Shown: positions 7,870 through 29,646 of the stretch, piece after piece
How positions within the stretch are numbered: the first letter of the stretch is position 1
Layout: each line of letters opens with the position of its first letter
DNA from: Candidatus Bathyarchaeota archaeon
GTDB lineage: Archaea; Thermoproteota; Bathyarchaeia; 40CM-2-53-6
Reading direction: 5' to 3'
Assembly: GCA_963833125.1 (NCBI GenBank)
Contig: CAWHWX010000017.1
Coordinates: 1-45,000, forward strand
DNA length: 45,000 bases
The notes under the pieces: model-generated
What the model was told of the DNA's origin: nothing
Seen by the model: only the letters and a program-made list of their open reading frames with translations
Databases searched by the model: none
Translations under genes and position numbers: made by a program

Positions 7870-7988
7870 GGGCCGGTAGTTCAGCCTGGTATACCTAAAT
7901 CAACGAAGGGCCGAAGAACGTCCGGTTTGCAAGTCAACTAAATCGAAAGTCCGGAAGGTCGCGGGTCCAAATCCCGCCCGGTCCACCA
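7870..7988 (+). tRNA. tRNA-Ala(TGC) with two BHB introns (21/22: 7893-7915; 37/38: 7932-7949)
   Basis: Acceptor stem GGGCCGG/CCGGTCC with G3:U70, anticodon TGC at 7928-7930, encoded CCA. BHB helices are TGGT/GCCG and TTTG/CGAA. Confidence 0.93.
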
Positions 7989-28436: not shown

Positions 28437-28952
28437 TTGAAACATCTAGGGATGGAAAAAGACGATTATGATGTCTTGCGGAAACTGGAAGAAGCATTCG
28501 AAAGAAAAGACCTCCAATTCTTCAAGACCTTTCTTGAACAATCGAGAGATTACCCTCTTCTCCTACGAGTGCATTCCGTCTGTATGCTTGAGCATATCGG
28601 AAATGAGGAGATGGTCCTTCCCCTGTGTAAGGTTCTGAAGGAAGACGAAAGCCCATTGACTAGGCATGAAGCTGCTTTCACGATGGGCCAGTTAGGTTAT
28701 CGTTCTGCGGTACCTGCTTTAGTAGACGCGATGCTTCACGATAAGAGCCCAATTGTCAGGCACGAATCTGCTGTGGCTTTGAGTTCGATCGGGGATGATG
28801 AAGTTGTTCCGCAGTTGAAGAGGGCTATCGAAGATGAGGATGAAGACGTTCGCAATTCCGCTTTGATCGCATTCGAGTATTTGACATTCCTGCAGAAGAA
28901 ACGTGGTACCGCCGTCGAGAACGTGGCGGTCAAGACGAAAATTCGACTGTGA
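28437..28952 (+). CDS. HEAT-repeat protein resembling one half of deoxyhypusine hydroxylase
   Basis: HEAT repeats with RHEAAFTMGQ and VRHESAVAL. Confidence 0.8.
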   Translation: MKHLGMEKDDYDVLRKLEEAFERKDLQFFKTFLEQSRDYPLLLRVHSVCMLEHIGNEEMVLPLCKVLKEDESPLTRHEAAFTMGQLGYRSAVPALVDAMLHDKSPIVRHESAVALSSIGDDEVVPQLKRAIEDEDEDVRNSALIAFEYLTFLQKKRGTAVENVAVKTKIRL

Positions 28953-28988
28953 AGCATTTAACTTAGTGAGCGTTTCGTAGTGGGTTCA

Positions 28989-29164
28989 GGGGCGGTGGTC
29001 CAGACCGCGAGTCAACCCCTCGTGGGGACATCTTGGTCTAAGATAGCGACCATATCGAATCGCCTTAAAACCGGTCTCGGGACCATGAAAATGAACGGCG
29101 GGAACACCGGTGATCGAGGGTTCAAAATGACTGAAAAGTCATGACATTCCCTCCCGCCCCACCA
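28989..29164 (+). tRNA. tRNA-Pro(CGG) with four BHB introns (29004-29031, 29045-29069, 29082-29104, 29127-29147)
   Basis: Acceptor stem GGGGCGG/CCGCCCC plus ACCA, anticodon CGG at 29078-29080. Removing four BHB-bounded inserts gives a 79-nt cloverleaf. Confidence 0.9.
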
Positions 29165-29238
29165 AACCTACCTTGATAACCGATCCTTGCTCGTCGCGCG
29201 AGTTTTGGCAAACATCGGATTGGTGTTAATTCGTGCCC

Positions 29239-29646
29239 CTATTTTCGTTGTAAGAGTTCTATCCAGATTCCATTTGGATCTTTCACGTACGCTTCTTTCC
29301 ATCCGATCGCATATCCGATCGCATATGGTTCGACGACAACTTCGACGCCTTGTCGTTTGAGTTCTTTCACCGTGGCTTCCAGATCCTGAACATCGAAGGC
29401 CAGGTGGTCGAGGTTTTCGCCCTCAACGTAAGGCGAATTGAATGGGCTCTCTTCTTCGTAATGGTTGAGTTCAAGAAGTTGCTCCGAGTTTGTGCTCTTA
29501 AGCGTAATAACACTGCCTTTGGTTGGAGACGTCTTCTGAAGAGGTTCCGCGATGATCATGCCTAGTACGCCAGTGTAGAACTTGACAGATTCTTCCATGT
29601 TTTTCACTCGAATTCCGGTGTAAACGAAACGAAATCCAAAGGACAT
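29239..29646 (-). CDS. VOC/glyoxalase I family protein
   Basis: GIRVKNMEES..FY..VLG, DHLAFDV, KDPNGIWIELL. Confidence 0.9.
   Translation of the reverse strand: MSFGFRFVYTGIRVKNMEESVKFYTGVLGMIIAEPLQKTSPTKGSVITLKSTNSEQLLELNHYEEESPFNSPYVEGENLDHLAFDVQDLEATVKELKRQGVEVVVEPYAIGYAIGWKEAYVKDPNGIWIELLQRK

Follow-up and report, generated by a model that had tools for sequence, protein, structure and literature searches.

A probable tRNA-Pro(CGG) gene with four predicted BHB introns in a Bathyarchaeia archaeon

We analysed a 45,000-nucleotide stretch of a Candidatus Bathyarchaeota archaeon assembly (the window) and conclude that positions 28989–29164 very probably constitute a functional tRNA-Pro(CGG) gene of a Bathyarchaeia archaeon, in which four introns of the EndA-type, protein-spliced kind are predicted at 15/16, 25/26, 37/38 and 59/60. 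As read from the sequence, the gene spans 176 nt of the forward strand and consists of five exons and four introns, the introns making up 97 of the 176 nt (Table 1). The coordinates, lengths and motif letters that an earlier note on this DNA had given for the four inserts all match the sequence. After the inserts had been removed by coordinate excision in a script, the 79-nt spliced product was folded by ARAGORN as tRNA-Pro(cgg), and ARAGORN and our own search (see below) together showed an acceptor stem paired in 7/7 positions, anticodon and T stems paired in 5/5 each, and U8, A14, G18G19, U33, G37 and the T-loop all present. The D-stem carries one mismatch (C13:A22), and the D-loop contains three extra nucleotides, 17a, 20a and 20b; the intron positions given here hold with these three nucleotides counted. 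The folding of the spliced product and the de novo search described below both agree with the earlier note in calling a tRNA-Pro(CGG) gene with introns at these four sites. An NrdD-like ORF adjoining the tRNA gene is 89% identical to a Candidatus Bathyarchaeia archaeon sequence.

Table 1. Coordinates of the parts of the candidate tRNA-Pro(CGG) gene (window positions) and of other tRNA genes recovered from the assembly
Feature	Location	Strand	Length (nt)	Description
Promoter-like element (predicted)	28951..28963	+		BRE-like purine-rich GAAGC followed by TATA-like ATTTAACT; 26–38 nt upstream of the tRNA 5' end
Exon 1	28989..29003	+	15	tRNA positions 1–15: acceptor 5' strand, U8, D-stem 5' strand, A14, G15; unchanged in 20/20 rows
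Intron 1	29004..29031	+	28	At 15/16; HBh' motif; 7-bp inner stem
Exon 2	29032..29044	+	13	Positions 16–25: remaining D-loop, D-stem 3' strand; 12/13 positions invariant, the exception being D-loop nucleotide 17
Intron 2	29045..29069	+	25	At 25/26; HBh' motif; 4-bp inner stem
Exon 3	29070..29081	+	12	Positions 26–37: anticodon stem 5' strand, C32, U33, anticodon CGG, G37; unchanged in 20/20 rows
Intron 3	29082..29104	+	23	At the canonical 37/38 site; hBHBh'; outer helix is the anticodon stem; inner helix weak, 1–3 bp
Exon 4	29105..29126	+	22	Positions 38–59: anticodon stem 3' strand, variable loop, T-stem 5' strand, T-loop 54–59; 21/22 invariant, the exception being position 47
Intron 4	29127..29147	+	21	At 59/60; relaxed BHB; outer helix is the T-stem; 5-bp inner stem with GAAA cap
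Exon 5	29148..29164	+	17	Positions 60–73 and encoded CCA (29162–29164); unchanged in 20/20 rows
tRNA-Ala(TGC)	window 7870–7985	+		Introns of 23 nt in the D-arm after mature nucleotide 23 and of 18 nt at the canonical site
tRNA-Pro(GGG)	C16:326836–327015	+		Introns at 15/16, 20b/21, 30/31 and 45/46, none canonical; loci L050–L067
tRNA-Leu(CAG)	C9:6776–6961	-		Four introns, after mature nucleotides 8, 14, 33 and 40; ARAGORN-validated once spliced
tRNA-Asp(GTC)	C14:27453–27554	+		Single 29-nt intron in the acceptor-stem 3' strand, after mature nucleotide 68
tRNA-Pro(TGG)	C12:125121–125218			One intron
tRNA-Arg(CCG)	C28:110482–110556	+		Sole intron-less archaeal-looking tRNA recovered; in the ~50% GC part of C28

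Every insert shows the same BHB geometry, in that 4 exon nucleotides ending 2 nt upstream of the 5' cut pair with 4 intron nucleotides ending 2 nt upstream of the 3' cut, giving two 3-nt bulges on opposite strands, with each cut placed after bulge nucleotide 2. The central helices in the window are, from intron 1 to intron 4, GTCC/GGAC, TAAG/CTTA, CTCG/CGGG (with one G-U pair) and TTCA/TGAC (3/4 pairs); scored by central, inner-helix and outer-helix pairs, the motifs are (4,7,1), (4,4,0), (4,2,6) and (3,5,5). At least two contiguous pairs flank each central helix, the inner helices being 7, 4, 2 and 5 bp and the outer ones 1, 0, 6 and 5 bp long. Under the definitions of Marck and Grosjean, as quoted in the Methods of a 2026 Asgard preprint (10.64898/2026.10.13.758758), introns 1–3 belong to the canonical class (HBh', HBh' and hBHBh', respectively); intron 4 is relaxed but possesses both flanking helices. 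Intron 3 resembles the canonical 37/38 hBHBh' intron in its 4-bp central helix with anticodon-loop nucleotides 32–35, its two 3-nt bulges and its use of the anticodon stem as outer helix, and differs from it in having an inner helix of just 1–3 bp and three further introns in the same gene. Group I and group II self-splicing introns were considered and rejected, given inserts of 21–28 nt against a ribozyme core of hundreds of nucleotides; no Rfam intron family matched in the region.

In its unspliced form the gene is missed by ARAGORN and by the Rfam tRNA model, as had been predicted of standard scanners. ARAGORN reported no tRNA over the whole window, nor at the locus with its intron option, and a search of positions 28900–29250 against Rfam gave no match even at E<=10; the RF00005 gathering score is not reached by the unspliced DNA, as is expected with 97 nt of inserts. 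The sole match of the Rfam tRNA model in the window is another tRNA, the tRNA-Ala(TGC) gene at 7870–7985 (46 bits with two large insertions), of which a near-copy lies at C12:8843–8958. Our own search relies on the BHB rule and generic cloverleaf constraints alone, and may jump any BHB-bounded stretch of 11–60 nt. Run de novo on the window, it returned two genes, the two-intron tRNA-Ala(TGC) and the tRNA-Pro(CGG) with exactly the four introns of the earlier note, and nothing on the window's other strand or on the reversed sequence. The whole assembly yielded 28 loci with up to four introns. By comparison, a reversed-genome null (both strands, ~6.1 Mb) gave 0 solutions with up to four introns and four solutions (3 loci) with 5–6 introns, none of which was followed by CCA. 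Solutions with 5–6 introns in the genome itself (on C1, at C16:399688, C18:88783 and C19:108963, and on C21) occur at the null rate and were dropped from the census given below; four of the five lack a CCA tail and fail ARAGORN and were taken as false, and C19:108963 has CCA but fails ARAGORN. A 4-intron solution on C21 was dropped for want of CCA, and genome calls by ARAGORN -i, which include many implausible long introns, were left out of the counts.

The locus is widely shared within the genus. A DNA search of 40 relatives, 22 of them same-genus genomes, matched it in 20/22 genus genomes, at full length and with all four inserts in 18/22; the ortholog was not found in four of the 22 (G003, G008, G015 and G016, which are 73–96% complete). 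A second copy, 95% identical, lies in the same assembly at C12:23943–24165. In a 20-row alignment, all four inserts are present in every row. As many as 77/79 exon positions are invariant, compared with 38/97 intron positions, and the lengths of the intron loops vary; both variable exon positions, 17 and 47, are unpaired. Introns and flanks have diverged to 78–95% identity across genomes whose exons are near-invariant. When the BHB model was applied to the alignment, 95.1% of cells were paired, compared with 44–52% when the partners were slid by 1–3 columns, and double-sided changes were detected in six pairs, every one of them in an inner stem (of intron 1, 2 or 4). None of 500 shuffles reached the observed BHB pairing values (0/500), a result that relatedness alone can yield; more weight is therefore given here to the slid control and the compensatory pairs. 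As judged from the alignment, invariant exons amid diverged introns and flanks, together with compensatory stem changes, are the pattern of a gene under selection. The de novo search recovered the identical four positions in 18/20 rows, the rows of G018 and G021, in which motif 4 has just 2/4 central pairs, being left unsolved. Upstream of the gene, a GAAG(C/G)-ATTT(A/T)A motif recurs at a similar distance in 20/20 aligned genus rows, the remaining upstream sequence having diverged; we read the GAAGC and ATTTAA-like box as BRE/TATA and hence as a predicted promoter.

Across the alignment, the central helices of introns 1 and 3 are paired in 100% of cells over the 20 rows. That of intron 1 is built on the D-stem 5' strand (10–13), and two pairs of its inner stem carry double-sided changes; that of intron 3 is complete (4/4) in 18/18 solved rows, its second inner pair being broken in 12/20 rows, with an inner helix of 1–2 bp in most of them. 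The central helix of intron 2 is paired in 88.8% of cells over the 20 rows (4/4 in 9/18 solved genus rows and 3/4 in the other nine), its inner stem includes two pairs with double-sided changes and its loop varies from 4 to 10 nt. For intron 4, 80% of cells are paired over the 20 rows (4/4 in 6/18 solved rows and 3/4 in 12/18), and its inner stem likewise contains two pairs with double-sided changes. We also observed that intron 1 is unusually conserved for an intron, with 16/28 positions invariant, three loop cytosines among them, and that global folding predicts an alternative CCCC/GGGG hairpin in the same region.

Natural counterparts of the predicted splice junctions are found in related genera. 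Orthologs from six other genera of the order (L020, L028–L032 and L034; seven genomes) are without both D-arm inserts (15/16 and 25/26); the search calls only the 37/38 and 59/60 introns in L020, L028, L029, L031, L032 and L034, and the alignment gives the same two in L030. L029 and L032 both read without interruption from the acceptor stem to G37, and match window exons 1, 2 and 3 exactly. A further ortholog, L027 (genome G023, of the same family and another genus), keeps both D-arm inserts and is contiguous from the anticodon loop to the 3' end (exons 3–5), without introns 3 and 4. Taken together, these contiguous stretches mean that all four predicted junctions occur as natural uninterrupted DNA, and cuts after bulge nucleotide 2 at all eight sites give junctions identical to the contiguous sequence of L029, L032 and L027. 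The D-arm introns are seen only in the window's family (2 genera), and the four-intron state in the window's genus. The simplest history would comprise an old 37/38 and 59/60 pair, a family-level gain of the 15/16 and 25/26 introns, and a loss of the older pair in G023. An ortholog series of this type (two introns, the other two, all four) documents the gains and losses of introns in one gene in a dated way that does not depend on motifs, and is the kind needed to ask how archaeal tRNA introns arrive. Intron transposition was rejected as an explanation: an all-against-all comparison of the 52 recovered introns detected similarity only between duplicate loci. In this respect the set differs from Thermoproteales introns, whose sequence families suggest transposition.

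With regard to the splicing machinery, the assembly encodes two EndA paralogs with the PF01974 catalytic domain, of 185 and 190 aa. The 185-aa protein matches the Aeropyrum pernix catalytic chain 3p1z_B over its whole length (E 8e-40), and its K39 aligns with K44 in the specificity loop of A. pernix EndA. Broad substrate specificity has been reported to require this lysine, which lies in the Crenarchaea-specific loop (PMC3488258). The 190-aa paralog has an alignment gap at the catalytic His and resembles a structural beta subunit, from which we infer an EndA of the two-subunit alpha2-beta2 type. RtcB is also encoded (574 bits). The contig carrying the window may stem from a co-binned sister population, in which case the EndA and RtcB genes might come from a close relative and not from the same cell.

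The proposed pathway would begin with transcription from the BRE/TATA-like element ~30 nt upstream, giving a precursor of ~180 nt in which each intron would fold into its own local hairpin, 4 exon and 4 intron nucleotides being paired between 3-nt bulges. Motifs 1 and 2 are built partly from the D-arm, and motif 4 partly from T-loop nucleotides 54–57; with these sequestered, the D-arm and the D/T-loop contacts could form only after splicing, and the endonuclease would have to recognise the local BHB shape instead of the mature tRNA body. The alpha2-beta2 type endonuclease would cut after bulge nucleotide 2 on both sides of each intron, RtcB would ligate the five exons and RNase P would trim the 5' end, the CCA being gene-encoded. 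Transcription, cleavage, ligation, the order of intron removal and aminoacylation of the tRNA-Pro(CGG) are all predictions of this scheme. It would describe an alpha2-beta2 EndA system that tolerates four independent BHB modules in a 176-nt precursor, two of which hold the D-arm until they are removed.

Not all of the motifs are equally strong, raising the possibility that the tRNA gene is real but that its weaker motifs (that of intron 4, or that of intron 2 in half of the relatives) require prior intron removal, a helper factor or another cut site. Intron 4 has 3/4 central pairs, and 2/4 in an alignment reading of G018 and G021, and the outermost central pair of intron 2 is broken in 8/20 rows. 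Folding points the same way, since the global MFE structure lacks motifs 1–3, its 5' region being paired elsewhere, and the precursor with all BHB motifs formed lies at -57.7 compared with -71.9 kcal/mol for the global MFE (14 kcal/mol worse). Genes are also known in which one intron must leave before the next BHB can form, as described in PMC8450103. Nevertheless, the four motifs of the present gene occupy separate, non-overlapping stretches, so that all four are able to form at once with no need for prior intron removal, and the local MFE of modules 1 and 2 is exactly the BHB structure. Motif 4 is braced by the 5-bp T-stem and an inner stem of 5–6 bp, alpha2-beta2 EndA is reported to cut relaxed motifs (PMC3488258, PMC4090602), and the product junctions match those of the intron-free orthologs exactly. 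We therefore consider a requirement for special processing very unlikely. That the BHB-like shapes arose by chance in a region that is no tRNA gene is hardly conceivable: relaxed shapes of this kind are common by chance, but three of the four motifs are of canonical class, the ~6.1 Mb of null sequence gave no solution with up to four introns, and a gene with invariant exons has been kept in 18 relatives and has intron-free junctions in other genera.

The locus could also be a decaying or non-functional relic, CCG being read by an intact tRNA-Pro(CGG) elsewhere in the MAG or by Pro(UGG). Both candidates exist, as an intron-less tRNA-Pro(cgg) was found at C28:34937–35013 by ARAGORN and by our own search, and a one-intron tRNA-Pro(TGG) lies on C12 (Table 1). 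Moreover, two RNA and two DNA runs, all searched as contigs, yielded no spliced RNA: the metatranscriptome contigs X19 and X20 span the gene, with each of the four inserts in place and no exons joined, although an assembled contig could not show a 79-nt mature tRNA built from 12–22-nt exons, and the unspliced X19 and X20 may represent precursor or DNA carry-over. The intact C28 tRNA-Pro starts with C1 and pairs it with G72, which we take to be a feature of bacterial-type tRNA-Pro. It lies within the first 60 kb of C28, where GC content is 55–57% compared with ~50% in the rest, and a NodT/TolC-family outer-membrane gene is located ~9 kb away. The 20 kb around it produced one 94-base match, outside the tRNA, in 1/22 genus relatives, whereas C28:125–145 kb has matches in 22/22. 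On the grounds of GC content, the NodT gene, the tRNA type and the few genus matches, the intact copy probably represents foreign, and probably bacterial, DNA joined to an archaeal contig, which would make C28 chimeric. Alternatively, the segment may be a real integrated island, but one common to no relative searched. An intact tRNA-Pro(CGG), which the earlier note had named as evidence against the gene, is present in the assembly, but the part of C28 that carries it is bacterial-like and reads as foreign. Given this context, and the invariance of the exons (77/79) with compensatory changes in the intron stems, we judge a relic very improbable and retain the reading of a functional, spliced tRNA-Pro(CGG) gene. 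For annotation, this means that the genus's only archaeal tRNA-Pro(CGG) escapes ARAGORN and Rfam, with the result that automated annotation would report the isoacceptor as missing or credit a contaminant's bacterial copy.

The assembly appears mixed in other respects. Two large contigs begin with a segment of 55–59% GC (C28:1–60000 and C16:1–65000), compared with ~50% elsewhere, which suggests either that bacterial DNA was chimerically joined to them or that the segments are foreign islands; the high-GC segment of C28 also carries a bacterial-type tRNA-Val. A sigma-70 search for bacterial contamination detected a region-2 gene at C16:67548–67751 and nothing on C28. The window's own contig, C17, has a GC content of 53%, and window positions 1–35804 are syntenic with C12:580–32598 at 72–95% identity; from this comparison, the two copies of the locus in the MAG are most likely not paralogs but come from two populations of the genus that were binned together. 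GC content reaches 60.5% in the final 5 kb of the window.

Three introns are given as the upper limit for an archaeal tRNA gene in PMC4033280 and in the tRNAscan-SE 2.0 paper (PMC8450103), in agreement with the highest number that the earlier note had named; this limit is exceeded in the 2026 Asgard preprint, which gives an average of 2.20 intervening sequences per gene, with as many as five in a single gene (10.64898/2026.10.13.758758). Four introns are above the textbook maximum but no record, and the four-intron tRNA-Pro(CGG) is a known kind of interrupted tRNA gene, not unique even in its own genome. As described in PMC4033280, PMC4090602 and PMC8450103, the multi-intron tRNAs of Thermoproteales (Pyrobaculum, Thermofilum, Caldivirga) likewise contain short BHB introns (~12–50 nt) at canonical and non-canonical sites, including 25/26 and 59/60, with several introns per gene, an alpha2-beta2 EndA with the specificity loop, and genes that are hard for standard scanners. 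They differ in their stated maximum of three introns against four here, and in lineage: the note had cited Thermoproteales and Thermofilum for multi-intron tRNAs, which are indeed known there, but the host of the present gene belongs to Bathyarchaeia. The 15/16 site is absent from the site list of one review (PMC4090602), and the note had not counted it as a common site; it is used here and, contrary to that remark, recurs in the genome, in 4/22 recovered tRNA species. Asgard tRNAs, as the preprint presents them, come close to the present set in that most genes are interrupted, many inserts lie in the D-arm and are overlooked by standard annotation, the mean is ~2 inserts per gene (2.20 compared with 2.0 among the 22 species recovered here) and some genes have four or more inserts (up to five there); they belong to another phylum. 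The main text of that preprint, whose panels comprise 90 Asgard and 18 reference archaea, contains no word starting with 'Bathyarchae', and our literature search found no paper on tRNA introns in Bathyarchaeia.

The census of the assembly was made with our own search, after 5–6-intron solutions and duplicate loci had been dropped. It comprises 22 archaeal tRNA species, which together carry 44 introns (2.0 per gene). All but one of the species (21/22) are interrupted at least once; 13 have two or more introns, seven have three or more and three have four, the last being Pro(CGG), Pro(GGG) and Leu(CAG). Only 16 archaeal tRNAs in the assembly reach the Rfam cut-off or E<=0.001 (three on C28 having been subtracted), so that much of the tRNA set is hidden. 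The four positions of the Pro(GGG) gene are repeated in 17/18 loci (the own genome and 16/17 genus relatives), and another family also has a four-intron Pro(GGG) (L033, genome G036), whose intron sites differ in part.

We think it rather likely, with less confidence than attaches to the gene itself, that tRNA-Pro(CGG) is part of a wider pattern, a third and as yet unreported hot spot of tRNA fragmentation. This would be a soil and peat genus of Bathyarchaeia (at least 22 species-level genomes) in which almost every tRNA gene is interrupted, at least three tRNA species carry four introns and the Rfam model overlooks over half of the tRNAs expected. In intron load the genus would be level with the Asgard focal families and above Pyrobaculum calidifontis (1.54 per gene), and this load would have been built stepwise on the older 37/38 and 59/60 pair. 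Heavy tRNA fragmentation, known from Thermoproteales and some Asgard lineages, would then be a feature of mesophilic Bathyarchaeia as well. Moderately interesting by itself, the Pro(CGG) gene matters more as an indication that the tRNA set of this lineage is heavily fragmented.

A further tRNA-Pro-like gene was observed in a same-genus relative at L035:89–306 (G003:C16). It is 218 nt long, with acceptor and T-arm intact and an ambiguous anticodon region, and the de novo search gave no solution for it even with relaxed limits. Alignment to compact references suggests about six inserts, and a 9-nt motif of exon 1 recurs inside the gene.
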